From NCBI GenBank assembly GCA_965113315.1, contig OZ220364.1: DNA of 64,000 nt; one strand, written 5' to 3'. Under the pieces are notes generated by a model. The model saw only the letters and a list, made by a program, of their open reading frames with translations. It was not told the DNA's origin and searched no databases. Below are positions 9,823 to 55,199 of this stretch, piece after piece. Position 1 is the first letter of the stretch. Every line of letters starts with the position of its first letter. Both the position numbers and the translations under genes were made by a program. Source of the DNA: Podarcis vaucheri. Its lineage: Eukaryota.

Positions 9823-10188
9823 GGGACGCGGGTGGCGCTGTGGGCTAAAGCCTCAGCGCCTAGGGCTTGCCGATCGAAAGGTCGGCGGTTCGAATCCCCG
9901 CGGCGGGGTGCGCTCCCGCTGCTCGGTCCCAGCGCCTGCCAACCTAGCAGTTCGAAAGCACCCCCCGGGGGCAAGTAGATAAATAGGTACCGCTTACCAG
10001 CGGGAAGGTAAACGGCGTTCCGTGTGCGGCTCTGGCTCGCCAGAGCAGCGTTGTCACGCTGGCCACGTGACCCGGAAGTGTCTCCGGACAGCGCTGGCCC
10101 CCGGCCAATAGATGTGAGATGGGCGCACAAACCCCAGAGTCTGTCAAGACTGGCCCGTTCGGGCAGGGGTACCTTTACCTTTACCTTT
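9823..10188 (+). mobile_element. Full-length young Sauria (Squam1) SINE
   Basis: Reverse complement of 1747-2108 with 4 substitutions and 1 indel; (ACCTTT)3 tail. Perfect 14-bp TSD tatattcactgata at 9809-9822 and 10189-10202. Confidence 0.94.
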
Positions 10189-10616
10189 TATATTCACTGA
10201 TAAAAGAGTCTACAGATAGTTGAAAATAAAACCCCGCAGAGGGAACTCTTAGGGTAAGAAGATCCCTTGGGGAAAAGTGAGGGCGTTTTGCTTCTTCAGC
10301 GATAGTTTTCCCAGGAGCAGCCATTCAAAGCAGAGCTGAAGCTGGGAATACTTCTCTGCAGAGCTGAATTTTAATCTGATCTGCACAAGAATCCATGAGC
10401 TTCTAAGGCTCTCTTCATTTCCAGGCCCAGACCTGCTAACATCTCCAGCATCTTTAATCCCGTGTGGCCTCTCTTGAAAGATGAGCTTGTCAGCAGTAAC
10501 TGTAAAATCAGTGAAGCCACATGAACCTGCCAGCCAAATGCTACCTTCCTTGTGGGCTAACTTGGAGGGCAGTGGGGTATATTGTCCCTTGTCGTCTTCG
10601 GACAGAAGTAGGCTGA

Positions 10617-14142: not shown

Positions 14143-15963
14143 GCCCCTCCATTTGTCTTCAGATTAAGCAGTAGCTCAACATTCCCCATTTTAGTATCAA
14201 AATATTTAATTAGTTTATTTATAGTTTTTCATAAGGCTGGCTCTATTATTATTTTTTTAAGTATCTGGGATACCATACATTCCAACTTGTGTCATTTCCA
14301 AGAAAGAATAGCAAGAGAAACAGGCCATCATATTAGTGTAGCTTTGCTACTGTTGCTACTCTTGGCAGCTCATTCCCTAAATACTTTTTAATAGGTTACT
14401 TCACAGAGACACACACAATTAATCCCTTCCCCACCCTCCATGTGGTTTAGGTCCACCTGCCCCTCACAGGGCTGGCTGATAAAAAAAAGTGTTCTTTAAA
14501 ATTGTCTCTCAAGTTCTGGAACACACAGTAGCAAACAAAACGCCTGCACACACGTTAGAATGTAAAAACCTGGGAGATGATTTGTTTTCAGCTTGGTGAG
14601 GAAATGGAAGTGAGTCCCACTAACCAATGAATGGAAATGAGAAATTGAAAAGCCACTGTTTGTGCTGAGTTCCCTTGTTAAATACCATGTGCTACATTTT
14701 GCTGTTATTCAGATGCTAATATGCCTCTGAATAAGTAATTTGATGTTCTAGGATATGCCTAGGTGGAAAGGCCTGTCCAAGTAGCTGCTAAGAGATTCTT
14801 TCTAGCCTTGTATAAGTATCTTTTGCCCCATATTTGAGCAATCCTTCTGCCACTGTAGGTCCCACATTAATGCCTCTTTTGATGTCTGTTGTGCTGACCT
14901 CTTTGTATAGGCTCCCCTCCCAGTATTATAGTCTCCCTTTAGTAAATAAAGCAGATATTATATTAGGTTATCCATATTGTTCCGCTGTAAGGTTTCAAAT
15001 AACTCCCAAGACCTCCTGGCAGGAGGATTGCTAGCAGAACAAAGTGCTGCCTCTTCAGGGACAGATTGCGCAGCTGCATTCACGCCTGTACGCAAGCAGA
15101 TCTCTAGTGCTGTCCTATCATGATTCCTCAGGTCTGGTAGATGACAGCTGCCAGGATGGTAGCCCTCCAGTGGGTGCTAATAATTTATACTGCAAGGCTT
15201 CCCAACCTGGAAGTAGCATCTAGATTTCACAAGGGACGGAGGTTTTGCTGTACCCCTCCCCATTTTATCTATTCCTTACCCATTTCTATTCCTTACCCTT
15301 TTCAAAAAGCATGTTTCTCACCCATGTGTTGATTTGTAGGGTGGAGAGGGGGGAATGTGGATGTTATGCAGCGAGGCTAAAACAATAGTTCTTGGAGCAG
15401 TGTGAACTGCTCTGACTTATCTGTGTGGGAAGGCATGTGTCTGATCCTGGCCTCTTTAACTATGGACCATTCCAATTTTCTGTGATGCCATGGAAATGGC
15501 TTTCATGAGAGGAGGGCTGGGTTCAGAGCACAATGTGCTTAATATGATATATGTATATTTTGGAGCAGTGGTCATGAGGCATCAGAGAAAGAAATATCAA
15601 AGGTGTGTTTAGAAATATATATGTCTTCACATACTTTGCCCCCCTTTCATTTAATACATGCGTATGTGTATTCATCTCCAGGGTGTGAAAAGGCCAGATG
15701 AGCAATGCCTCCTGCTCTCAATCTTAGATGTTTTCAAACTTACATTGCTGCAATGGATCAGTGGTTTTATTTTCAGAAATATAAACCTGGATAGATTCAC
15801 TGCTAATCTAACAGTAAAAAAAAAATCATGTTTGCATTGACCAAGGGAGGGTCAATAATTTCCCATGTGTGTATTATTGGTGTGAGTCTGACTAGTTTGG
15901 TCTCCCATGGGCTGAACCCCACTTACCTGCTTTAATCAGGTAGTATGCAGATTTAACTTAAGC

Positions 15964-16101
15964 CAACCTTCCCCAATCTAGTGCCTTCCAGATGTTGAAC
16001 CACAGTCCCCGTCATATGAGCCCCAGCCAGTAGGGCTAATAGTTAGGGGTGGTGAGAACATGCAACTCAACACCTGGAGGGTACCAGTTCGAGGAAGGCT
16101 G
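15964..16101. mobile_element. hAT-like MITE in the SH3PXD2B 3' UTR
   Basis: Ends caaccttcccc / gaggaaggctg with internal ttccagatg...cacctggag. The flanks extend the inverted repeat (see findings). Confidence 0.7.
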
Positions 16102-16409
16102 GCTTAAGTTAAATCTGCATACTGTCATAAATCTTCCTATATAATGGGTATTTTTTAAAAAATGGAGGATTTAGGAGTCTATCTCCTAACTTTGCTTTCT
16201 GAAAACCAGCACTTGGAGTTCACATCATGTCATTTTCCCTAAAAACATGTTGCTTTGGTCCCAGCTTAGATACAGGTACTGTCCTTTTAGTGCTGTAGTG
16301 TTTCTTCTGTCCATCCCTTAGATCAGCGGTAGCCAACATGGTACCCTAAATGTTGTTGGGCTACAACTCCCATCACCAGCTTCAAGCAACTTCAAGCATC
16401 CTTTGAGGA

Positions 16410-28720: not shown

Positions 28721-28965
28721 TTAAGGGCGGTAGATTTTAATAATGTCTTTGATGACCCGTCGGCAGATTGGGCAGCAGGCATTGAGTTGTTTCTTCAGCT
28801 TAAGACCACAGGTGTTGCAGAGGCACATGTGTCCACAGGTGTAGATCACCACGTCCACCTCGTTGTCAAAGCAAACGGTGCACTCGCCATTCTTGCTGCT
28901 TGACGGCTCCGGAGGTGGGAACACGGGAGACACTGGAGGGCTCAGAGGTGAACTTGGAGCAGTCA
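28721..28965 (-). CDS. NEURL1B: NEURL1B terminal coding exon: C3HC4 RING finger, stop
   Basis: ccttgcag acceptor on -, phase 1. [14 protein letters not shown]...[56 protein letters not shown]. Confidence 0.97.
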
Positions 28966-30331
28966 CTGCAAGGAATGGGGAACAGAGAAACCTCGAGTCA
29001 GAACCACTTCCCTTTAATCTGAGCCTCTTATGTCAGGCAGCAAAGAAAAAAGGGGAACGCAAAGGGTTGCTTCCTTTAGACAAAAGTGCTATGAAGAAAA
29101 AGGTCTGGGGGATGTTTTAAAACCAGCAACACTTTGACACAAGAGAGGGAACAGCAGAACTCAAGAAATGTTTGCATATATACCCTTTGTGGGAAGCAAA
29201 ACCTCTTTCAAACAGTTGGTTTTTAAAGACCAAAGACATGCAGTATGACTTGCATGGGGTGCTGCTAGATAGACTTTGTCTATCATGATTTGTCCCTGCT
29301 GTGGCTTTTGCAGGAACCACTTATCCATTCCGTTTCGCTGCCTGGCAGTCATACCAGCTGCGGTAACTTTCTGAATATGGTATTTGCAAGGGGTGGGGTA
29401 CTTTCTTTAAAAGTCCAAGTGCATAGCAGAATATTCAGGTGAATTTTATATAGCAGCACATAAAACTTATCGCAGAAACAAGCTGGCTTCTTTAAAAATT
29501 ATTTACAGTAACTGGAACAGCAGCTCTGTATTTAATGAATGGGATTTGGGGCTGATCGTAGCTACCTGGCATTAATATTTGTATGGTCGGAGATTTAATA
29601 ATGAATTCAATAAATAAAAGTACTAAGAAAATGTTTTCAATCATATACTTTGTATTCTAAAGCTCCATTAATAGAATCCTATAGCATGAGCTTTGAACCA
29701 GCAAAGGATGTTTTACCAGCTCTTAATATTTCTGGAGCAGAGTAGCTCATGGTGATAGATTAAGCAGTATTGGCTTTCATCCGGCTGTGGTTCAGTGGTT
29801 GTGAAGTCCATATTTCACTTATCAATAGGAACTTTAATCCTTTCAGGATTTCAGTAGCGCCATGTGGAGTGACAGTTGAATTTTGGGTTGTTGTTTTTTT
29901 AATACAAATGATTTTGTATTGCATTTCATGTTCTATCTACCCTGGTTCTGCAAAACACACACGTTGCATAGCATAGGACAGCTCTTCATACACAAGGTCA
30001 TTTCTTGTTACAAATGTCACATGGGGATCATATGACCCCAACCAAGGGAGCCCCTTCTGGAGCAGTTCATGAAACCACTGTGGGAATAGACCAGGGCTGA
30101 GGAACCTGCGGCCCTCCTGATGTTGGACTCATGACCATTTCCATCATTTCCACCCATTGGCCATGCCTGCTGGGGCTGATGAGAATTGGCATCCACCAAA
30201 GATTCCCCACCCTTGAGAGAGACAAACAATGGCTCTGCGGGAGCACTGGGGCAGCACCTTGCTCCCCTTCCCCTAGAACAGGCTGCCATGCAATGGTTTT
30301 CCTGTTCAGGTAAAGTGGGGCATCTACTCTT

Positions 30332-30538
30332 GGGAGCCAGCGTGGTGTAGTGGTTAAGAGCAGTGGACTCATAATCTGGTGAACCGGGTTCACTTCCCCG
30401 CTCCTTCACATGCAGCCGCTGGGTGACCTGGGGCTAGTCACACTTATCTGAAGTATCTCAGCCTCACTCACCTCACGGAAGGGAAAAGGAGATTAAGGGG
30501 AGTGAAAGGCGGGATATCAACTCCAAACTCCTCTTCTT
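30332..30538 (+). mobile_element. Squam3-like SINE with two internal deletions
   Basis: Aligns to 4914-5153 but lacks segments of about 20 bp and about 22 bp in the 3' half. Confidence 0.8.
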
Positions 30539-30603
30539 ACTTATCATGCCATAGAGTTCTGGGTGTGACAGGTTTGTAAAGTAGCTTTAGTTTCTCTAGG
30601 CTT

Positions 30604-30743
30604 CACAGAATTGTAGAGTTAGAAGGGACCATGAGCATCATCTAGTCCAACCCCCTGCAGGGCTGGAATATTTTGCCCTATGTGGGGCTCAAACCCACAA
30701 CACTGAGTTTAATAGTCCCATGCTCTACCGACTGAGCCATCCC
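30604..30743 (-). mobile_element. tRNA-Lys-derived SINE with CR1-type tail (P.s.1/SINE-like of lacertids)
   Basis: Minus strand: gggatggctcagtcggtagagcatgggact...gtgggtttgagccccac head, then gggggttggactagatgat...ggtcccttctaactctacaattctgtg CR1 3' end. Confidence 0.8.
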
Positions 30744-31047
30744 TCAGGGAGGAAGATATAACAGATATTTCCTACTGACAGCAACAGGTCATTTGTTACT
30801 CTCAGGGTTTCCATCTGCTTGCATTAAAGTCTAACACAACCCCAACAGCAGCTTTAGGAAATCTGGACGCTCCTCTGTCCCAGGAAGAAAGAGGAAGTTC
30901 GGCACACACTGCGCAAGTTACGACATGCCTCATTCAGGCAAAGCAAGACTCAACTTGTAAGGTCTGGCTCATAACTTTTGGGCAGGGTGAAATGTGTGTA
31001 TTCAAGCAACAAGAGTGCAGGAGGCACAAAGCGAAAGGGTCCCTTAC

Positions 31048-31173
31048 CTAGGGATGACTCAGAAGCGGAAGAAGACCTGTTCACGCTGAAAGCCATATCT
31101 GAGTCACTGTCATATTGGGAGCCTCCAGGGGATCCTGAGGGAGAGACTGTCACAGGGCTGGACTGCACAGTGC
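31048..31173 (-). CDS. NEURL1B: NEURL1B coding exon 4 (Ser-rich linker)
   Basis: ttttcag acceptor, gtaagg donor. 126 nt, phase 1-1. GTVQSSPVTVSPSGSPGGSQYDSDSDMAFSVNRSSSASESSL. Confidence 0.96.
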
Positions 31174-32278
31174 CTGAAAATACAAAATAACAGGTTCCGT
31201 CAGCTTCAGAGGTGGGGCAGGAATCTCTCAGGCAAGCAGTGCGGAACTGAGTCTACCCTGGGACAACACCGTCCATTTCATCTCCACAACAGACTTACTG
31301 TGTAATTGGGAACTTGGTATTTTGTAATACTTATTAGCAGGTTGATTTGTTTAAAGAAAATGAGCTTCCTCTGGTTCCAAGCTTGCCTTAACTGCCTTGT
31401 TAAAGCTCACTCTATTCCCACTCAATTCAGATGTTTGCCCAATTCAGGGGCAAAAATCTTACTGGCAAGATCCAACCAGGAGGTTGAAGACCAGTGGTGG
31501 AGACTGTCTAGAACATGGGCCCATGAGGCTGTTTTGACCAAGCCACACCCACCTGCCCCTACACCTGACATCATACATGTGGGGTATGTGGTTTGGCCCA
31601 AAGCAGGGTTTGCAGGCATCACCAATCTGAAGAAAAGGAAAAGAGGGTCCTGTGAATTCTACTTACAAAGGACCTTGCAAACAGGAAATTAGGACCCCAA
31701 GAAAGATGTCAAGTTACTAAAATACAGTCTACCCCCACCTAGCCAAGAGGGTGCAGCCAACTGAGAGTGATGCCTACGAAGTCAGGATAGCTAAATGGAA
31801 CTTCCCTGCTCAGAAGTGGTACGTGTATCCAGACCAGAAGCTGAGAACAAAGTGAGAGTGGAATGTAGCCATAATCCTCATGCCCTGCTTGGCTGCTTTT
31901 TGGCAAGAGAATGCTGGAGCAGAGGAATCTTGGGCTGATTGTGCAAGGCAATTCTGATGTTCTGAATTATGGGAGTACAAGCAGCCCTATTCCAAAGCAA
32001 TGCTAGTTTTCAGCCAGGAATATAAAACTCAAGTAGTGATCAGACCTCTATATTGGCAAAACGGCCCATAGGCTGGTATGTGACCAAAAAGGGGCCTGGT
32101 GGTGGTACAAGAGGGCAGTCTGCATCTTTGCAACTGTGCCAGGGCCACTGAAGCTGCTTACAGCACTGGCGTAACATTGAGCCATACACCAGGGCCTACC
32201 TGAGAGTTCTAGTCAGATGTGATCGAGAGCCCTCTCTGCTCCATCGCATGGATCACATAGGCTTGTAGAAACAGTATA

Positions 32279-32519
32279 CAATGGTACATCTAGTTACAAA
32301 CTTAATTCATTCCACAGGTCCATTCTTAACCTGAAACTGTTCATAGCTAGAGGCGTGCTTTCGCTAATGGGGCCTCTTGCTGCTGCTGTGCCGCTGGCAC
32401 ACGATTTCCGTTCTCATCCTGGGGCAAAGTTCTCAACTCGAAGTAACTCTAGCAGGTTAGCAGAGTTTGTAACCTGAAGCGTTTGTAACCTGAGGTGTTT
32501 GTAACTCGAGGTACCACTG
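32279..32519. mobile_element. Tc1/mariner (Tigger/pogo-like) MITE, second copy
   Basis: TA-caatggtac...gaggtaccactg-TA; homologous to 9286-9511. Confidence 0.83.
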
Positions 32520-32808
32520 TAGAACAGTATGCACATTTACCAGCTTCAGTTTATGAAAAAGTACATGCAAGTTGCCAGACAAGCGGCAGAGTCATCTGGT
32601 TTTGACCATCTCCCCAAATATAAGATCATGCTTCAGCAATGCCAATGCAAGGCACAGCTGGTGGCAACAAGGGTTTAGTTGGCCTATAAAATGCCACAGA
32701 GAGAGGCAACAGCCCACTGAAGCCAGGGAGAATGTAATGCCTCTCCAAAGCCGTAAAGAAATCTCAGCTTTACACTACACTACACCCATATTTCTGAGCT
32801 GCACTTAC

Positions 32809-33516
32809 CTAATATTTTGAGTTGATTGATTACACCATGGATCGTGAAAAATACCCACAGTGACTGCGAGGTATCAACGCACATCAGCATCCCACGGTTG
32901 ATCCCGTTTATTCCATGGTGCACTTCTCCATTTGGCAAGACCACAAAGCTGAGGATGTCCCCATTGTTGAGGACTGGGAAACCTCGGCAAACCACCCAGT
33001 ATTCCTTGCGATCCAGAAGGAAGTCTGGATCCGCTGGGAGCTCATTTGTTCGTAAAGTACCAGGATCACAAGAAGTGATGCCAAACGTGAGGGCTCCATA
33101 GTACGGCAGCCCCAGGTGTCCAACTTCCACAAAGAGGCTTTCGCCAATGTGCAAAGGCCGGTCGGAAAACACCAAAGTCCTATTGCTCTCTTGCCAGTTG
33201 GTGCAGGCAGACATCCGGTCCTGAGAAAAGTTAATGTCGGGCCCATGAGTAGGGTGGAAACGCAGATCTGTATCGAGAAAGGCAGGCACCACTTGGGCAA
33301 GCTGCCGCCTGCTTGGACAGCAAGGGATGGTGTGGTTATCTGTCGGCAGCGCAGGCATACGGCTCAAGTTCAGATTAGCAATTTTGGCCACCACCTGGTT
33401 GTTCTCCAGTTCGTTGTTGTTGAAGTTGGCTGAGTCGTGGCTGCTCTGTGGAAGGCAAGTGCTGAGTCGTGCATTGCTGAGACGGGTGGAGGTCATCGTC
33501 TCGGCAAACATGCTGT
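32809..33516 (-). CDS. NEURL1B: NEURL1B coding exon 3 (NHR2 domain)
   Basis: cctcacag acceptor, gtaagt donor. 708 nt, phase 1-1. DSMFAETMTS...NELENNQVVAK...DLRFHPTHG...LVFSDRPL...FGITSCDPG...LLDRKEYWVV...QLKIL. Confidence 0.97.
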
Positions 33517-36500
33517 CTGTGAGGCAATGACAAGGAAAAGCTGTATGAGAGGCAAGCTGAAAATGGCAGCCGACCCTGGCTTGATCGTTGCTTTTTGGCC
33601 CCTCCTTCATCATACTTAAAACATCAAATATGATACTTTTCCTAGTCCAATTGTGTTTGCAATTAAAGTGGGCAAAAGGAACATAAAGAAAGAAAAATCT
33701 ATCTGGAAACACAGAATTTTCAAGGTAGATAGGAATTCTTCCATCAAACAAAGCACCACCAGTATTTGCTCTTCTATGGGAGCGCTGTCCAATGGAACAC
33801 CGCACTACAAGCTGGTTGCCCGATGCAGGGGCCTCTCTTCCTTTCAGACTTGCATTTGGTGCTCACCAAAAGAGACCTGTTTCTGTTCACTGCCTCACTC
33901 AATTGCAGAAAAGCAGATTCTACAAGCTACACTACCTACTTGAGAGAATAAATATTCCTTCCTCGTCTCATCTCTCTCATACCTCCGCACCCCCACCCCG
34001 TCCTTGCCAATTTAATTCATGTAAGAGAGACTGGAAAGAGAATGCATTCAATCACTTTAGACCATTAATAATAAATTGTGTGTAATGTACTTGCATGCTA
34101 AAATAGCAGTAGTGACCTTTAAAAAAATGTTTCAAAGCATACTAGACTATTTGTTACTGACAGGCTATGTGAACAAGCGACAAACTCTCTCCCAGCACAA
34201 CATCCCATCTGATAGCCCCCAATCTAAACAAAAAAACATAAAAACCACAAACATTTCTAGCCCCAAAGCATAAAACTAGAAGCACATCACTCCATATGAA
34301 CCATTCCCCTGTATAGTTATTGAGAGTTGATAATGAGAAAAAGAATGGGTATGAGGAAAGCAAAGGGCAAGATACTTCGGCAAATTTTGATTCAGGACAT
34401 TCAGATTTCTAAAAGGAAGAATCATCATAAGATTATTTTCCCCAAGTCTTAGATCTATAATCTGGGGGCCACTACCTGGACAGTAATTCATGCTGAGATC
34501 ATGGCATGACTTGTGGATGGCAGCTTAAGGCTGCAGTACTGTGTGTGCTTACTTAGGAATAAAACACACTGAATTAAGTGGGATTTACTTCTGGGAAAAC
34601 GTACACAGGTTTACACTGTTAAACTTGATTTTAAGTTACACATAGCTCTGCTGCATTTGCATGCATTTTAGCCTCCTTAAAAGTGGAAATGTATTGAAAA
34701 TTTATCTGAAGTGCTTAAAGTTGACTATCAATGCAATATATGGAAAAATCAAACGTATAAACAGCTTTCAATTTTGATTAGCCACATAGCTTTTCTTGAC
34801 AGAAGGAATCTGGGAGGGGGTGTTAAAGTAAAGCCTGCCTTCCTCCTCAGGATCTCAAGTAGCCAGTTCAATATCTCAAAGGAGTGGCTTTCTCTAATTG
34901 CTTAAGTCATAAAAGCTTCACATCTACAATGTTGAGTTGATATAATGAATTTGTACATAGTGCATCCTGCTTTGTGAAGCATCTACAGTTCTATATTTGG
35001 GTCTTCCAGCCACTCCCCAATTACTGACACTACAAAAGTGATCCAACTTGACCCTCACTTTCTCTTACATTTCTACCTGTAAAATGGTAATAACAGTGAT
35101 CTATTTCATATGGATGCTCTGAAGGGAAAGATGCGGCCAAGCACTGTTGAAGGCTCTGATCAAAATTTAGCAAGAGTTAAGTGCTGTTATGCTCATTTAT
35201 TTTAATGGGCTTTTGGCACACTGTCCAAATTAATTGACTGTGGCCAGTAAGTGCTATAGCACATTGTACACTATAGTTCTACAGACTACAGGGGGAGAGA
35301 GAAATGGCCTGGTTTCTACCTGCTGCCTCCACTGACAAGCTAGCCATTGTATAACTCACTTCCTAGGAGCTGTGCCCCTTCAACTCTACCCAGGGTTATA
35401 ATGCAGGATCTAGCACACCACAGACCATAGCTTTCTGACAAGGCTTAGTAGGACACAGGCAAACTCAAGTGAAAATGTAAAGACAATTTTCAGAATCATG
35501 CTAGGTCTTGGTATGGCATAAATACCCATATGCAAGGCAGAGAATAAATTTCAATAGCCTTTTGGCAAGGCACTTAAAACTAGGTAAAAGGGGCAATGGC
35601 TAATAACATACTATTCCTAGGTGTTTGTTTAATTTTAAGCCGAAAAAGTGTCCCTTGTTTGGGGTGTGGAAGGACATGGAAAGGGAGCCTAAGAATTTGG
35701 GGAGGTGGGGAAAGGTTGTGGTGGTGGTTTTCAAAATTTTAAGCACCCCAATTTAAACCGTGCCTACTTAAGAATGATTTGAACTATTTTCCATTAATGC
35801 ATTCATTATGTCATTATTGCTGAAGCTACGTTATCTTTAACAATCATGTCCACAATTAAGATGACAGGAATGCCAAATCTGTCCTTTGAAGTCAACTGTA
35901 GAGCTGCAGATATGTGCAGTAAACCAATACCAAAAAGGGGGGGAGGGGGTTGTGACAGCTTTATTCAGATAACCCCGGAGTACACCAGATGCATGTATTA
36001 GTGCTCATGTTCTGAGAACACTGGAGGCAGCAGATTACATCACAGGCAGCATCCAAGATCCCTAGTGCTTTGTAAACACATACTATCAGGCTTGTCTATA
36101 AGGACAAAAATAAGTCCACAATCATGGCTCATTGAGCTGTACTTCTAGGTACGACAACTGAAGACAAGCCATCACCTGAACTCTACAGGACAAGGTGATA
36201 AATCAAGAGCGAGGAATCTCTTGCCTGGACGGAATAGATTCAAGAAGAGGAAAAACCCAATGCTTTGGAAAAGCTTCCAAACTCTTGGAAAGAGAATTAC
36301 GACATTGCTGCCCTCGCTGGAGTCCTCTGATAAGCAGAGAAGCTGGCGTTTCTCTTGTGTCAAGGTGCTGTGCTTTCTAAAAAACCCCGATAGGGCAGGA
36401 ATGCCACATGAGAGGCTCTAAGTGGCCGTCACAGGAGATAATGATTATAAAGCCTGAGCTGGAGAGGGAGGATGAGTCATGGCACTGCATGGTACACACA

Positions 36501-36867
36501 GCTGGCAATCTGTGGAGCCAATGCAAGGGGAAGAGGCCTCAGGTCATTGGCTTGGTCTCCTTGGTTGTGGGGCTCACAGATCCAAAAGTTAAAAGCTATC
36601 TCACACCAAGGGCACCAGTGCAACAAACACACCTGCAGTTTTATCAAGCAAGCTTATGTAATAGGAACAGGCTACCAACAGAAATACTATGAGCAGTTTC
36701 TGGCATTGGTTTCAAATTTCTGAAGTGCTGGCATATTAATTTAGGCATATTAATTTAGGGGGGAAAATATCTGTTGCCAGCTTATCTGCCCCATGGTGCA
36801 ATCAAATTTAACCACGAGGGAGCAGAATGCCCACCTGAAGATTTCACATTTGCAAGCAGGGGCTTGC

Positions 36868-37025
36868 TTATTTCATTTATTTATTACATTTACATTCCAC
36901 CTTTCCTCCAAGAGCTCATGGTGGCACACCTGGTTCTTTCCTTCTCCATTATTATCCTCACAGCATAGGCTTGGCAGAGAGACCGTGAGCTTCATACCTA
37001 AGTAGGGATTTGAACCCGAGTCCCA
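36868..37025 (-). mobile_element. Old degenerate SINE fragment
   Basis: (TAAA)n-type tail and a B-box-like ctcgggttcaaatccc on the minus strand. Confidence 0.5.
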
Positions 37026-37191
37026 GTAACAGTGACTGGATGAAAATGAAAATGCAAGCTTAGTACCTGGGCTTTACACTTTACAACATAAGCACCACTA
37101 CCTACCTCACACAGCTTTTTCTGAGAGAAGGGGAATATGACAAGAGGGTCTATGCAGAAGATTTTTTTAAAAACAGACCATATACACCTAC

Positions 37192-37752
37192 CTAGTATTT
37201 GCACTTCATGCGTGATTCCATAGACATCTATCAGTGCCCAGAGAGGCCCGGAGACTTTGACGCCACAGTGAAACAGAATTGGCTCTTCGTCATTAACGCT
37301 ATAGAAAACTCTCCCATGGCGGTCGACCCAGAACGCCAAGACGTTGTCTCTTAGTGCAAACCTCTCTGGCAGGGCTTTGGCCCAGAAGCCTGGCCGTGTC
37401 ACCAGGTCTGGGCAGGCGTATTTTGGGATGTCGTCTGCGCTCATCTGCGATGGATCGTGAGTGGTGAAGCCAAAGCGCAGGGCCCCGCTCCACCCATGGT
37501 GCACGGACACCAGCTTGAGACGCACTTTCTCGTAGAGGTGGATGGGCCGGTTGGTGAAAGTGACGCCGTTGCAGAAACTGTTCCTCCGAGTGGCTTTGCG
37601 GGAATGGGCATCCAGGCGTATGTTTTTTCCTTTGGCCTGGAAATGGAATCGCGGAGGTTCAGTAATGGTGAGGACAGACCGCCTCTCATGGCTACTGTTA
37701 GGCAGTGTGTAATAAGGCCTGTGGGATACAGAGCGAGCCTGTTGACTGGTGT
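37192..37752 (-). CDS. NEURL1B: NEURL1B coding exon 2 (NHR1 domain)
   Basis: ctgcag acceptor, gtaggt donor. 561 nt, phase 1-1. DTSQQAR...PRFHFQAKGKNIRLDAHSRKATRRNSFCNGVTFTNRP...GWSGALRFGFT...IPKYACPDLVTRPGFWAKALPE...LWALIDVYGITHEVQIL. The canonical exon 1 (MGN...) was not found, so intron 1 is inferred to exceed 26 kb. Confidence 0.97.
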
Positions 37753-38237
37753 CTGCAGATAATAATAAAAGGGAAAAAAAACAGGAAGAAGAGGCATTGT
37801 TAGGAATTTGCTAATTTAGGTTGCAATGCTAAGAAAACTGCTTCCCCCACCCCCCAACCCCAGCTACTGATATGTGCAGATTCTAGGCTAGATTTTAACA
37901 GACTAATCAGATACAAACACACTCCTTATTTGGACAAAGTTCCTCTGCTCCCTGTTCTTGTAATCCTAGTAAGAATGACATTTTTCCAGTGGAGAAAAAT
38001 TCTGTCTCTCAGCCAGTGTTCAGCTAGAACCAGTTTTTAAATGAATACATTGCTAAACACAACTGACACCTCAACAGAAACGCAAACAAAAAAAACCTTA
38101 GCACACTAGGCTGAGGTGGGGAGATCCAAACTGCAGTAGTCACACTGCTACTATTTGGGGCCAAAAGAGGAACTGACTAGACAATCTCATTGCTGACATA
38201 AACAGATTTGCTCAACAACTGCTTCTACAATCTAAAA

Positions 38238-45965: not shown

Positions 45966-48170
45966 TCAATGAATGCATCCTATAAGTAACCATTTTATTT
46001 TGAGATCCTATTGTTCAAATGATGTGAATCCATTGTGAGAGCTGGGTGGTGGCTGAATTTTTGACCGACCTCCTCCCTATCCAGAAAGCTCTAAAACACT
46101 TCAAAAGGACTTCTGAATAGGAAATAGACTAGGCAGTGTTAGAACAGCCACAGATTCAAATGCAAGCATTTCCTCTGTGTGTGCTGCTGCTGCTGCTGCT
46201 TCTAAAAGAGAGAGACTTCAACTGTCCAATATAGCAAGCAGGGAACAGTTTTGTTTTTGCATTTTGAACCCTGATCTATACAGTACTGCAATATGTGAAA
46301 TGTATGGTTTAGTTGTTTTGAGGGGGCAAATCAGACAAGCCACTGTATTTTTCTCATAGCCAGCTGTCTGGAAGGAACCCTAGAAGAAAAAGCAGAGTTT
46401 CATTACCAAATGGGTATGAGCTACATTCCCAGAGAAAGTGAATTCCATAGAATCTAGGCCAAGGAATGAAGTGGGGGGCGGGGGTAGGAAATGAAACTTT
46501 ACAAACAGCATAAAGTTCACAGAAACTGCACCAAAATTCCTATTACACACAATCTTTCTGCTATTCCCATCCTACAACAACTTGTTATTGTCACTTGAAA
46601 AACTTGTAATTAGGACTAATATTGTTACGAAATCATCATCAATCTGGCTTGGAAAGACAAAGGAGCCCATTTCCTTCTTGTAGATTCATCTCGCAGCTAC
46701 TTTAGAATAGCTGAAACAGTAAACTGTTGTTTCCAGAGAAAATTTCATGACTTTAGCTTGTGACTTGATCCCCACCCCGAAAAGCAACTTAATCATCTAT
46801 CCCATGACATATCCTTAGTGCAATGGATCTTTGAGCAGGGCAGTTTCTCTAAAAATAAAATGACTACATTCTCTGAAATGCGAGCGCTTCTACAAAGCCA
46901 GAGTTCAGCCACATCATTAAAAAGCTGCACACAATAGAACTGTTACCTTGAAAGGGAAAATAACCGCAAGGCCATGTCATCCTGGTTAACTGAGCATCCT
47001 TTAGCCATGATAGTGTCACAAGACAAACCACAAAAAAGAATGAAAAGCCGATTCGTTGAGCTAGTCTCAAAGGCCACTCATGTTTGCTAACAAAAATTCA
47101 TAATGAGGCAAACTTTCTTTCAACAATGAGTGATAAAAATCCTCACTAAATTAGAGGCAATGGCAGAGATAAAATATTCCATGATAATCATTTCTGCTCC
47201 CCACCCACCTCGAGTAATGCCGATTATTTATAATAAAATGAGTATTTTCAGATGTCTAAGATACAGTCTTGGCAGTGTCTATTCTCAAGGGCTTACATAG
47301 GGCTGTTTCAGGCATAATGCTATACCACAGTTTACTGCTACATGAAAAAACAAAAGCAAGACTTAACCTTGTATATTTCTCCTTTCCTTCTGCTCCTCTG
47401 GTGCAGCTGCAATGAGATTTCATAATTTCTGTTTTAAATTTAAATAGAATAATTTCTGTTTTTAACCATGAATTACAATTAATTTAAACCTTAAACCAGC
47501 CTCTCCCAACCTGGGGCCCTCTAGATGTTTTAGACTACAAGTTCCATCAGTCTGTGACATAATTCTTGATAAGGGACGGTAACAATTCCTCCCCGCCCAT
47601 TGCCCATATCAGAGAAAAAGAATGTGGGGGTGAGATGCAGCTCTAAGACATGGGTCACCAACACAGCGTTCGTGAGCACCAGGGGGTTCCTTTCTGCACC
47701 AGACTTATCAAAATAATGAATTCAGGGGCTCGGTCACCAGCTCTGCCTTGTACTCTGTTACCTGGGCAAGTTACTTGTCCTTCATTATTAACCATGATCC
47801 CACAGCAGCCATTTTGTGGTGGTGCCTACAAGAGGTTTTCTGCTGCTTTCCCCCACAAATTATCAGATGTGTGCACGAATTCAAAAAAGTTGTCACCCCC
47901 TGCTCTACAAAGCTTTTGGAGTCTATCAAACAAAATTGATACTGCAGTAGAGAATAGCTCTAACTTCTGATGAACAGAATACTAGAAACACAAAGCACAG
48001 AGGCTGGTCCATCTGCCACTCACTTAAGCAAGTAATACTTTTCTATAAATAATTTGAATAAAAAACTGCTTGTCCTTCAGCATTTGTTGGTTCCTATTGT
48101 TTCCCCACTTCTCTTCCCAGCTCTCTCACTTCCACCTCACAAGCTACCCCAAACTAACAAGTAAAGTGTA

Positions 48171-48414
48171 AATTAAAAAATTCCTTCCAGTAGCACCTTA
48201 AAGACCAACTAAGTTAGTTCTTGGTATGAGCTTTCGTGTGCATGCACACTTCTTCAGATACCTGAAGAAGTCTTCTTCAGCATTTGAAGAAGTGTGCATG
48301 CACACAAAAGCTCATACCAAGAACTAACTTAGTTGGTCTTTAAGGTGCTACTGGAAGGAATTTTTTTATTTTGACTATGGCAGACCAACACGGCAACCTA
48401 TCTGTAACTGGAAC
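48171..48414. mobile_element. Penelope-like retroelement remnant: inverted pseudo-LTR fold-back
   Basis: 82-bp inverted arms (48175-48256 and 48285-48366, 1 mismatch), a unique 3' extension, and a perfect 13-bp TSD caagtaaagtgta at 48158-48170 and 48415-48427. Confidence 0.85.
48223..48262 (-). ncRNA. Minimal type I hammerhead ribozyme motif (Penelope-associated)
   Basis: Minus strand GGUAU-CUGAAGA-A-GUGUG-CAUG-CACAC-GAAA-GC-UC^AUACC: 5-bp stem I, CUGANGA and GAAA core, 5-bp stem II, palindromic AGCU stem III. Activity is not demonstrated. Confidence 0.75.
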
Positions 48415-48486
48415 CAAGTAAAGTGTAGCTAGCAATAGTGATTATGACATTCCACTTTTATGCGACTATCGGCTGATGTTTGGCCG

Positions 48487-48566
48487 TCAAAGCTAGTCAG
48501 TCACAAAATAATATTGTAACAGTACATCAAAGCTAGTCAGTCACAAAATAATATTGTAACAGTACA
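48487..48566. repeat. Perfect 40-bp tandem duplication
   Basis: tcaaagctagtcagtcacaaaataatattgtaacagtaca twice. Confidence 0.97.
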
Positions 48567-51500
48567 TTATAACTATCAGAGATACAGCTAACAGGAGAGT
48601 TTATAGAATACAGCTTTCTAGCCTGTGCTTCATTTTTCCTCAGCAATATGTACTACGATTCAAGTTCTTTTGGGAGGTAGCTCTTTAATTTAACTGAAGG
48701 TTTTGCTTCTCTCATCTGCAAGTTAAACAGCATTTAAGCCAGAACCGCTGACAAGTATTTCCTGTACAGCTATAAGAAGGTCTTTTGCAATGAGTCAGGC
48801 CAATTTTCATCTCAGCCTCCTATGGCCTGCAGTAGCTCGCCAGAGAATCTTAAGATGGCTTTGGGAACAACATAGGATGGATGGAAGAAGGGGCTGTGCA
48901 CCCTCAACTGCCATTTTGTGTAACATCCAAACAATTTGTGAGCATCACATAACATTGGTTATGTTTAGGTTCTGTGGGTTTTTTTAATGAATCTTTGTAA
49001 GGTCAGGTGTTTTGCTTTGTTTTTGAAAAAAGAGAGCATCAAGTGGCCTTCAGTTTGGGTCAAGAGGCCTCCATCTTTAATACCATGTTTTTAGAATCTG
49101 GTAGGTGAGAGTTAAAAGATGGACGGAGAAGGCATAGTGTCTAAGTCACGTTTAGTCTGCTACAATTCCCTCTTCCCCCCAAAATAGTATAAAAGCTACT
49201 GCCTGATAGATAGATGGAAGCCTTGGAAGCTGTTCAGATTGCTGCAATTGATCATAGTCATTTGACACCCAAGTTCCTTTCCCCTTATATTTACTTCAAC
49301 AGTAAAGCTTTTTGAAATATCGTCCATGTGCAAGGAATCAGAAGTATGAAAATAAAGGAGGTAGCACTGGGTCACACCTTCAAGCCATAGCCAAAGAAAA
49401 ATGTGCTGTCACCAAGCCAGGCAATTAATCTCACTACATTTAAATCTGCCTGTCAATTTCTAGACTATACTCATTAATATGCTCTGCAAACATGTTGCAG
49501 CACTGTGGACCACTAGAATCAACTAATGGAGGCTGGTGTGACCCACAGTGAATAAATTTGAAACACACAATTTTCCTGACCACCCCCAATTTTAATCTGA
49601 TTTTATTCCAAGGTGGGGTTTTAAAGACTTGGACACTATACTATCCATTTGACATTTAGCCTGCAAGCCTATGAAGGCTTATTTGGGAGTGAGCCCCACT
49701 GAACGTGGTGGGACTTCTGAGTAAGCACGCACAGGAGTAGGTTCCTAGTTTTCCATATGAGAAGTGTTCCAAAACAACAGACGCCCAGTTCATTAGCCAC
49801 TGTTATGTTGTGCCTTTCCCAAGAGACTGCCATAGTCTGAACTCAAAAGATCAAGGAAAAAATAGTACTCCAAAAACTGTCAATCTTCTAAAAACTGGCT
49901 CTAGTATCAGTTTTCAGTATTCCACAACAGAAGTATGTCCAAATATATTATATTAAGTGCTAAATATGAAAGTTGTATTAGCATCTAAAAATTATGTGTC
50001 AACGTATTGCACAACACATAATAAAAGACAGACCTCAGCTCAAACTGCTGATGCTACAATCCTGTTGCCTTACATAAACTATCTTATCAATTCTTCCTTT
50101 CTCACAGAATGACTAAAACTATAGGATTCCTCCCCAGTTCTCTCTTACCAGCCAGCATCATACCCAAGTTCTGCATTACATTTCTATTATAAAAGCTAAC
50201 TAAAATGATACAGAAATATAATTCCATCTAACCTCCATTTCCCAGAATATTAAATATATTTTTCAGAAGGCCATAGTAACACTGCAATATTATAAGGTAG
50301 ATGAGCAGATAGACTTGTGCTTTTGCATGTGCAAATACCAAAACAACAGTATAGTGTAATAATTAGCAGTAACATTTTATGTCACTAAGCTTGCAGGAGC
50401 ATCTACAGAATATCTGGTTTTAAATTAGATGCAATTATCTTTTCTCCCCTGCCCCCACACTGAACTCACAAAAAATATTGGGTAACAACATGTTTCACTC
50501 TGTCCCATCACCCAGATGTATTGGGATCATGGAAAGGGTGTGCTAACTTGAACACTATTCACATGCTGGTTGTTTTCTACATAAACAGGAACAAGGTAAG
50601 GGGTGGAATCGTTGTCTGTGGGAGGCAGGAAATCCATCCCATCCCCTATAGGCACAAAGGGTCACCGTGTTACACCAGAAGACTAATTGCTAAATAATTA
50701 CCAAAAAAGAAAAGGAAAATGAAAGGCTTTAAAACAAAGCAACTGCAGCTCAGCATGGGTGGCAGTTTTGTCTGACATTCAAAATGGCCATTGAACACCA
50801 TGTCGAATAACTGAAAGAGATGGGTTTAAATTCTACTGCGTAGATCTGGTGAAGTCACTGTCTCTCACCCTTAGTCTCCAACCAGTTAAATGGGTTAATA
50901 TTTACCATTTATACAAAGTGCTTCGCATACTGTGATTAACGATGACAATGTTGTGTAAATGAAACAAATTCCTGCAGGGAATTTATTAGCCTCCTGCTTG
51001 CCCTCTTCCTAACACTAACAGACTACTCCAAGCACCCTAACAAGGGTACATTTCTCAAAGTATACTGGGAAGAAGCTGCCACGGCTTTCAGGGGGTTTTG
51101 TGTTAACGTGCCTCCTTTGTGAAGAGCTGGCTCCCATAACACGTGCTGAATTTTGGCTGAGGAAACCAGCATTGACTGTAGGAGCTCCTGAAGTTTGCTC
51201 ACGGCCACTTTTGCTTCTCCCCAGTCTGTTTTTCTTTCTGATGAACTGTGCTGAACTAAGTCATGATTTTGCTTAGCATGTCATCTGAACTGGAACTCAT
51301 GCTTAAGGTCATGATTAGCAAGAAGAGAGCTTAATTGCAAGCTCGGGGCTCATAGGCAACACAGTAAGCGAAACCTTTGTTTTTGTTTTGTTTTTTTTTA
51401 AAAGGAGTAAAAGAAGCTGCACATTCCTTTCCAGAAGTCCACAGTGTTGTGAAAGCCAGGTCAATTGGTCAGTTCCTCCTTAGTGGGCAATAACTACTTC

Positions 51501-52781: not shown

Positions 52782-52945
52782 AAAGTCTTGTTGCACCTTG
52801 AAGGCTAACAAATTGCATTGTGCCATAAGCTTTCATGGACTAGAGCCCACTTCACCAGATGCTTCAGATGAAAGCTTATGCCATAATAAGCTTTGTCAGT
52901 ACCACAAGAATTTTGCTGCAACAGACTTGTAACACAGCTATCCTT
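52782..52945. mobile_element. Older Penelope-like inverted remnant with a degenerate hammerhead
   Basis: gtcttgttgcaccttgaaggctaac...cataagctttcatggactagagcccacttcaccagatgc...gaaagcttatgc...gctgcaacagact. A further decayed piece lies at about 53192-53340. Confidence 0.65.
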
Positions 52946-54099
52946 GCCCTGTCAAATGGACCAAAAGTGCTCCTTCTCTAGGCTGTCTTGCATCTCACCA
53001 TATGGCAAATTATAATGTGCATACATTATTCAAGAATGGAATAGTGGTGTCTTTGTAGCCATACAAACCAGAACTACTGAAATGCAATTTGGAAAGCTGA
53101 TCTAGGACAAGGATTAAATGTGTGAAGCCTCAGCTCTGTCAAGTATATGGAGCAAAACACACACAAAACTACAGCTCCTCCTCCCCAACAACAAAGTCTT
53201 GTGACACTTCAAAGGCAAATAAATACAAGTGAGCTCTAGTTCACAAAAGCTTATAACTCAAATTCACCCATAATTTCTCTTACTATACTGAGACTCTTTG
53301 GGATTTATTGCAACAGAGTGATACAGCTTCTCCTGTTGAACTTATTGCTCTTGAATTTGCTAGTAGCATAGATGGGAATACTGTAGTTCAAAATGTGGAA
53401 TAATCTTAAGCAATTCTTCTTAATTCTTAAGCCCTGCAAAAAAGGGATTTCCCTTCTCTCCCCCCCCTGCACCCCCCAAAATTAGCTGGGGGTGGGTCAG
53501 GATAACCCCCTGCAGAACAACACACAGCAGGAGAGGGGGGGTCATTCCATCCAGCAAGCTGAAATATTTGTGTTGTTGGAATGTTTGGCATAATGCAAAG
53601 TGGAATTCCTCCCACTATAAATAGACTTGTTGGGTGCAATAGTTCTTTTGCAGCAAAATCCTATACGTATTTGTTTGGACGTAAGCCCCACTGTGTTGAA
53701 TGGAGTTTTCTTTCACGTAAGGGTGCAAAAGGATTGCAGTTTTAGAATCCTTTAACTTGCATCTAAATAAGCTCAGCTTTTCAGTCTTCAGGGCATGATG
53801 CAAAAGTACGGTAACTCCTTTTCAGACCTCTATTTGTACAAAATGGAAAAAGATTTCTGGAGGATAAAGCTATCAGTGGCTACTGAACATGATCACTATA
53901 CCACAGTATGCGTGCTAAGAGGAAGGCACGTTTGGCAAACCCTCAACATGATCAACTCCCACCCAGAAACTCCCACTGTGGAAGGACGTGTGGATCCAGA
54001 ATTGGCCTCCACAGTCACTTACAGACTCACTGTTAAGACCGTGTTCATGGAAGACAATCTTACTCAGCTACAAGTGATCACCAAAGAAGAAGAGAAGAA

Positions 54100-55199
54100 G
54101 CTGAATACCAGCAGCTGGGGGGCAAACAGCAGGACAGGGCTACTGTGCTCAAGTCCCATTTTGTTGGGGTTTTTTTTGTTTTTTTAAAATAATATTTATT
54201 AATTTTCCAACAAATGAAACACAACACTACAAAAAACAAAACAAAAAAAGCATACAATACAATACAGTACAAAAAACACTACAAAACACTAACACATACA
54301 ACTAACAAAACAAAACAAAACCCATTTATAACACAGTCCAATTTCAATATCTTATCTTTCTTTCACTTATTTCCATGACCACCTCACACCTCCCTTTTTG
54401 TATTCCACTTCTATTAATTGCTTCAGCAATTCCTTTCCATCTTCCTCTGTTTTCTATCCTATAATTATCTTAACACATTCTAACCTTATTTTTCCCTTTA
54501 ATACTCTATTAATCTATTTATACTTAATTCCTTATAACATTTCTACTAAATCCATATAACTTCATTCCAACATTTTTCTAATATTCATTAATTTTACAGT
54601 ATTTCTGTAAGTAGTCTTTAAACTTTTTCCAGTCTTCTTCCACCGATTCTTCTCCCTGGTCTCGGATTCTGCCAGTCATTTCCGCCATTTCCATATAGTC
54701 CATCAACTTCATCTGCCATTCTTCCCAGGTGGGTAAATCTTGTGTCTTCCAGTACTTCGCCATGAGTATTCTTGCTGCTGTTGTTGCATACATAAAGAAA
54801 ATTCTATCCTTCTTTGGCACCATTTGGCCGACCATGCCCAGGAGAAAGGCCTCTGGTTTCTTCAAAAAAGTATATTTAAATATCTTTTTCATTTCGTTAT
54901 AAATCATCTCCCAGAATGTCTTAATCCTTGGGCACGTCCACCAAAGGTGAAAGAATGTACCTTCAGTCTCATTACATTTCCAACATTTATTGACGGGCAA
55001 ATGGTAAATTTTTGCAAGCTTGACTGGTGTCATGTACCACCTGTAAATCATTTTCATTAGATTTTCTCTTAAGGCATTACATGCTGCTCAAGTCCCATTT
55101 TGGGCTTCCCAGAGGCATCTGACTGGCTACTGTGGGAACAGAATGCCAAATTAGTTAGGTCTCAAATCCAGCAGGGGTTTTTTTTGTGTGTGTTCTTAT
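54100..55199 (+). mobile_element. Old CR1-type 3' end split by the L1 insertion
   Basis: Removing the L1 and one TSD restores aataccag...gggcttcccagaggcatctgactggctactgtgggaacagaatgc...atccagcagggg...tgttcttat. Confidence 0.6.
54164..55084 (-). mobile_element. 5'-truncated L1-clade LINE (ORF2 C-terminus, 3' UTR, poly-A)
   Basis: ORF 54578-55057 carries a CWKC...GTFFHLWWTCP zinc knuckle. AATAAA on - at 54195-54200, A-rich tail, perfect 18-bp TSD tgctcaagtcccattttg at 54146-54163 and 55085-55102. Confidence 0.92.

Follow-up and report, generated by a model that had tools for sequence, protein, structure and literature searches.

A recent fold-back insertion of a high-copy, likely Penelope-like repeat end in Podarcis vaucheri carries a hammerhead motif predicted to be silent

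What does a hammerhead ribozyme with an intact-looking core do on the transcribed strand of a gene, and does the complementary copy beside it serve to lock it? Both questions are raised by a stretch of 64,000 nucleotides of Podarcis vaucheri DNA (contig OZ220364.1 of assembly GCA_965113315.1, hereafter the window), in which an insertion near NEURL1B folds back on itself. The initial annotation had described it as a young Penelope fold-back whose antisense arm acts as a built-in safety catch. The answer reached here is plainer. The element is a real but ordinary Penelope-type fold-back stub, of an already known kind; it represents, with high probability, a recent head-to-head insertion of the end of a high-copy repeat, likely a truncated Penelope-like element (PLE), whose hammerhead is predicted to be silent and to have been buried as a by-product of the insertion. 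The coordinates of the features are collected in Table 1.

Table 1. Features of the fold-back insertion and of its host gene, in window coordinates
Feature	Position	Strand	Basis
NEURL1B, from coding exon 2 through the last exon	28721..37752	-	Homology; exon-2 acceptor at 37753/37752
Left target-site duplication (TSD), 13 bp	48158..48170		Exact repeat; single copy at empty sites
Inverted, tail-less copy of the putative pseudo-LTR end (gene-sense arm)	48171..48261	-	Arm comparison; divergence of family contigs beyond 48261
Minimal type I hammerhead motif	48223..48262	-	Core-pattern match and predicted fold; fits published consensus
Junction of the head-to-head copies, with additional 9-mer micro-inversions of the 5' core box	48262..48283		Arm comparison; low family depth in bin
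Direct putative pseudo-LTR arm (antisense to gene), damaged hammerhead	48282..48370	+	U3 at 48284, A12 at 48306, without stem I
One-sided 44-nt tail, element 3' end	48371..48414	+	Loose ends of family at 48372/3 and 48408/9
Right target-site duplication	48415..48427		Exact repeat; empty sites in two related species

The host gene was located by homology, NEURL1B exon 2 being 95-96% identical to the proteins of the lizards Phrynosoma and Anolis. Homologues carry 10-14 or more residues before exon 2, and these were searched for upstream in the window: 19 proteins were given, seven yielded a scored peptide, and none of the seven matched (best 27/54), which makes it likely that exon 1 is situated past 64000. 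Above 37.5 kb no 500-nt bin reaches a CpG ratio of 0.55. A candidate exon 1 at 47607 would leave the insertion outside the gene, upstream of it; this candidate was rejected, being unlike the homologue N-termini and having no phase-1 donor where one is expected. From this arrangement we infer that the insertion likely lies in intron 1 of NEURL1B.

The insertion itself is 244 bp long (48171-48414) and is bounded by exact copies of a 13-mer that occurs only these two times in the 64-kb window. Reads and contigs from 4 of 24 listed sequencing runs (3 DNA and 1 RNA) were compared over the region 47700-48900. In each of two related species, one contig joins 48157 directly to 48415, leaving an empty site with a single 13-mer; the presence of one 13-mer at these sites indicates a true target duplication and makes the insertion younger than the splits from both species. 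The description of a young insertion with a 13-bp TSD was thus borne out, by the exact 13-mers and by orthologous empty sites in both of the related species compared, and the insertion is recent and lineage-restricted. Its target site is AT-rich. Such a young copy is unremarkable for a squamate, given the thousands of polymorphic Penelope insertions described in anoles (PMC7561263). An assembly or library fold-back artefact would fit the finding that none of the public contigs from the runs compared crosses the whole insertion in the region 47700-48900. It is, however, hardly credible: the arms differ at defined sites, the TSD is present together with matching empty alleles, and in a second, independent individual, presumed to be of the same species, contigs enter both insertion ends. 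Nearby, at 48487-48566, lies an exact 40-bp tandem duplication; all three DNA runs, one of them from the same-species individual, have a different, shorter sequence over its first copy, and the duplication is therefore private to the haplotype or to the assembly.

The 82-bp near-perfect hairpin initially reported was recovered. Positions 48175-48256 pair with 48285-48366 over 82 bp with a single difference (48235/48306), which becomes a G.U wobble in the minus-strand RNA, and the predicted fold has a minimum free energy of -167.8 kcal/mol (z -22.8; equalled by 0 of 200 shuffles). The spacer, too, is built of alternating inversions as had been noticed: four alternating 9-mers were found between 48249 and 48292 (48249-57, 48262-70, 48272-80 and 48284-92). 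These micro-inversions likely arose by repeated fold-back priming or by template switching, by analogy with the mechanism described in PMC3846280. The tail is predicted to pair back with approximately 48332-48340, forming a stem-loop. As the tail sits on the plus arm, this arm is likely the primary copy, running antisense to NEURL1B, and the gene-sense ribozyme would be the inverted extra copy.

On the minus strand, 48262-48223 reads as the complete minimal type I hammerhead that had been claimed, with the core CUGANGA ... GAAA ... NUH. Stem I (48262-58/48227-23) is followed by the first core box (48257-51), an extra, bulged A48250 between positions 9 and 10.1, stem II (48249-45/48240-36, with G48249-C48236 as the G10.1-C11.1 pair), GAAA (48235-32), a palindromic 15.1-16.1 segment (48232-29) and C17 at 48228, which places the predicted cut at 48228/48227. 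A hammerhead scan had been proposed as a check, and its outcome was divided: the core pattern matches once in 64 kb, where 0.05 matches are expected and 5 of 100 shuffles had one, but in an Rfam search up to E 10 no hammerhead model matched the insertion. Two structural details of the claim held in part. Stem I does have 5 bp in the insertion, but 4 bp in the family; family contigs diverge from the insertion after 48261, and the fifth pair is therefore an accident of the junction. The palindromic stem III exists as a 4-nt palindrome at 15.1-16.1, but there is no real helix III and its loop is absent, the computed self-duplex of this half-helix amounting to only -2.5 kcal/mol. The element also departs from canonical type I hammerhead ribozymes (HHRs) and retrozymes in having one intact motif per strand, arranged head-to-head, and a helix I of 4-5 bp, not 6. 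Just 5' of the hammerhead, the family sequence (a low-agreement consensus) looks like the complement of the first core box, and loose ends of the family fall at 48261/48285, near 48249-48270. A native pseudo-LTR hairpin may compete with the ribozyme fold and may seed the fold-back junction.

Folding calculations place the motif in the hairpin. When the motif is folded by itself, the hammerhead helices have probabilities of 0.86-1.0; adding just the spacer lowers these to 0.17-0.46, and in the whole insertion they are 0.0. Along the growing transcript they are likewise close to zero from the length at which the helices could first form, and the forced hammerhead fold lies about 54 kcal/mol above the hairpin. 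Sequestration by the earlier-transcribed arm, as the initial annotation had supposed, is what these models predict, with helix probabilities near zero and a gap of this size. The motif might still cleave NEURL1B pre-mRNA in vivo, by dimerising in trans with transcripts of other family copies or through an element protein, and so tune the output of the gene. An intact core on the gene strand, the palindromic helix III half and the presence of family RNA in a related species would all be in keeping with such activity, but the predicted barrier of 54 kcal/mol and the weak helix III duplex oppose it, the homodimer is predicted to be held together by the palindromic stem II and not to form a double hammerhead, and the absence of the insertion from relatives leaves no conservation. 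Among 1,387 family RNA reads of a related species no pile-up of ends was seen at the cut site, a weak result given fragmentation and the difference of species. We regard cleavage of the host transcript as highly improbable.

The mirror copy on the plus strand had been described as damaged in both catalytic boxes and devoid of stem I, and so it is: it has U at position 3 (48284) and A at position 12 (48306), and no stem I appears in its fold. G12A falls on the only CpG of the plus arm, while C3U adjoins the error-prone junction. In family contigs nearly all depth at 48306 is A (G accounts for a depth of 235 of 372,843 in one DNA run), which makes G12A a recurrent family variant; by summed depth it is roughly estimated to occur in about 15-25% of the family. 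At 48284, C makes up 87-97% of family depth, and U3 is therefore rare. G12A slows hammerheads more than 500-fold and up to about a million-fold, as described in PMC2553840, and a Saccoglossus minimal hammerhead (min-HHR) entry in PMC4209133 naturally has U3 with G8. If both arm differences are taken as point mutations, a simple model that gives CpG sites extra weight still puts at 0.02-0.04 the chance of both hitting the core in the plus copy. This bias towards core positions counts against the by-product reading; on the other side, one of the changes lies at the junction, and the strand of the damaged copy is not the one read with the gene. Selection against the plus-copy core (P 0.02-0.04) was considered and rejected, since the core lies on the non-gene strand and both changes are mutationally explicable. 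An ATG in loop II of the plus strand (48298-48414) opens a short frame with a stop at 48325-27, and a T>A change at 48325, present in about 40-55% of family depth, abolishes that stop; the frame may be the start of an element ORF, as in the anole element PAc, or may be due to chance.

The family to which the insertion belongs is highly abundant. Between 9,846 and 12,818 contigs per DNA run were placed on the region, and the summed family depth is about 1e5 times that of the flank, a figure that is not a copy number. Of 226 joint rows, the 15 listed each connect left arm with right arm, the pattern that head-to-head junctions elsewhere in the family would give. No RT/GIY-YIG ORF was found in the window or linked to the family, and ORF-bearing relatives, sought by pattern in metagenome, viral and prokaryote collections, gave 0 matches. 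The assignment to PLEs therefore draws on non-coding hallmarks, by which the element is likely the 5'-truncated end of a Penelope-like retroelement. The claimed Penelope-type pseudo-LTR with a minimal hammerhead agrees both with the min-HHR consensus and with the described anatomy of PLE insertions; as to clade, the family may be 'Neptune-like'. A separate 169-aa open frame on the minus strand (54578-55087) presumably resembles the C-terminal end of a LINE ORF2.

The same inferred intron holds, at 52783-52945, a second head-to-head fold-back, older and decayed, from a related family that also bears a hammerhead. Most of the motif survives in its minus arm, with A6 changed to G and an imperfect stem I; its plus arm is without the 5' half of the motif and, as in the younger insertion, is the one with the tail. 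The gene-sense arm is thus the better preserved one here too (n=2), which counts against the by-product reading. A short fragment resembling the 3' half of the same hammerhead lies at 53230-53260 on the plus strand.

On the by-product reading, the locus would have formed as follows. The observed step is that the element entered AT-rich DNA and duplicated 13 bp of its target. Reverse transcription would have started at the tail (48414) and run for about 130 nt to the 5' edge of the hammerhead, where several fold-backs or template switches at the self-complementary core-box 9-mer would have created the micro-inversions and the inverted, tail-less arm. The plus copy would have acquired G12A at its sole CpG and C3U beside the junction. 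In NEURL1B pre-mRNA, the emerging motif is predicted to pair with the earlier arm and never to fold; if it were freed, a lone minimal hammerhead without helix III would, judging from the literature, need a second copy or an element protein. Lone min-HHRs gave no detectable cleavage in vitro and their dimers were weak, according to PMC4209133, and the anole PLE hammerhead, as described in PMC11167929, cuts only with the element protein, with no RNA-seq ends reported at its site. With the lone min-HHR inactive in vitro and the anole one dependent on protein, a lock would have little to act on. For the host the insertion is likely neutral on balance, the one reservation being a predicted intronic dsRNA of about 90 bp, which would be a possible ADAR substrate.

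The initial annotation had gone further, proposing that a built-in safety catch lets sense-oriented ribozymes persist in introns. As a product of selection, such a catch would mean that solo gene-sense hammerheads harm the pre-mRNA, while fold-backs survive with the ribozyme caged by the antisense arm. The predicted caging is indeed complete and co-transcriptional, Xenopus introns are described as depleted of tandem HHR retrozymes (bioRxiv 10.64898/2026.07.22.740005), and fast ribozymes can abort splicing (Fong 2009, cited in PMC2995048). The Xenopus depletion, however, concerns tandem, dimer-competent arrays, and hammerhead-cut introns were spliced efficiently in vivo (Dye 2006, cited in PMC2995048); it was the faster HDV ribozyme, unlike the hammerhead, that blocked splicing (secondary citations in PMC2995048). 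The monomer is moreover reported to be inactive (PMC4209133) or protein-dependent (PMC11167929). The arm geometry arises automatically on both strands: either strand of a head-to-head pair reads its antisense arm first, so the order of the arms is uninformative. Fold-backs are also a general output of PLEs, including those of rotifers and flies (PMC3846280, PMC3681739). Given the symmetric geometry, a monomer that is inactive or protein-dependent, and damage that is simply explained, the safety catch was not upheld, and we consider a selected one quite improbable. Equally doubtful is the wider scenario in which caged ribozymes are seeded in introns, solo gene-sense copies are purged and self-locking fold-backs feed silencing of the family through ADAR or siRNAs. 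Were it true, insertion geometry would act as a filter of ribozyme toxicity, and the purged solo copies would be those that cut pre-mRNA with partner copies or with element protein. A literature search of titles and abstract openings found no study testing an antisense safety catch for PLE hammerheads, and a search with a 16-nt motif matched no paper.

A further reading, compatible with the by-product one, is that the functional product is the hairpin itself, intronic fold-backs giving dsRNA on which ADAR would act, or from which dicing would yield siRNAs restraining the family. The duplex, near-perfect over about 90 bp, is one that ADAR could plausibly edit; in Drosophila, siRNAs arise from Penelope inverted repeats, as described in PMC3681739. 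A>G or T>C changes made up 20 of the 28 variant places in the RNA run, compared with 9/31, 10/35 and 9/37 in the DNA runs. The RNA run is, however, from another species, has zero depth in the flanks, and 98% of its placed reads continue into unlike sequence. Six of the 20 places were listed, of which five also occur in DNA runs or are the copy's own changes and the sixth consists of 4 reads at the junction; the DNA variant counts, moreover, include flank differences. A call of RNA editing from this run was not accepted, as it comes from another species with no matched DNA. All 15 Rfam miRNA matches to the insertion fell below the gathering score and were rejected as generic hairpin hits. We treat a function of the hairpin as a tentative lead and think it unlikely, though not remote.

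Other inverted sequences occur elsewhere in the window. An inverted repeat with 57-nt arms of 86% identity lies at 15942-16123, downstream of both convergent genes, and is not a hammerhead element. A repeat of about 370 bp is present in two 98%-identical copies of opposite orientation (1743-2108 and 9823-10189) in a plus-strand SH3-domain gene, presumably SH3PXD2B-like; from their arrangement, these copies could possibly form a long-range dsRNA.

Of little consequence in itself, being one further truncated Penelope-type fold-back, the locus has its value as a clean specimen: the insertion is dated, its empty allele is known, and its multi-step junction likely preserves the trace of repeated fold-back priming at a ribozyme core box. 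The size of the family also makes it cheap to ask whether the minimal hammerheads of PLEs cut host RNA in vivo.

Compared with known systems, the insertion shares with the recently described non-LTR retrozymes (bioRxiv 10.64898/2026.07.22.740005) a type I HHR, a relation to pseudo-LTRs (pLTRs) and a non-coding nature, but those are head-to-tail, dimerisable arrays, whereas here the units stand head-to-head with motifs on opposite strands. Opposite-strand pairs of min-HHRs 100-700 bp apart are already on record (PMC4209133). The insertion units of EN+ PLEs, as described in PMC3846280 and PMC8557442, likewise have a head-to-head inverted repeat and a palindromic junction; their one-sided tail measures 30-40 nt compared with 44 nt here, and their TSD 8-10 bp (in Adineta) compared with 13 bp, while the present insertion differs from them in having no ORF left and in its several extra 9-mer micro-inversions at the junction. 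With the Poseidon element PAc of Anolis carolinensis (PMC11167929), another squamate PLE, it has in common a pLTR hammerhead, AT-rich targets and two reverse-transcription start points defining the tail. Every structural feature listed for the min-HHR by Cervera & De la Pena 2014 (PMC4209133) is present in the minus-strand motif. The closest entry in Fig. S3 of that work is from Chrysemys picta and is not starred there as ORF-linked. That entry has another loop II and U at position 17, where the present motif has C, and the fifth, junction-made pair of stem I is peculiar to the present copy. The two agree in the core boxes, the bulged A between 9 and 10.1, the G10.1-C11.1 pair, a stem II of 5 bp, the palindromic 15.2-16.2 and the 4-bp stem I of the family, with compensatory changes in stems I and II.
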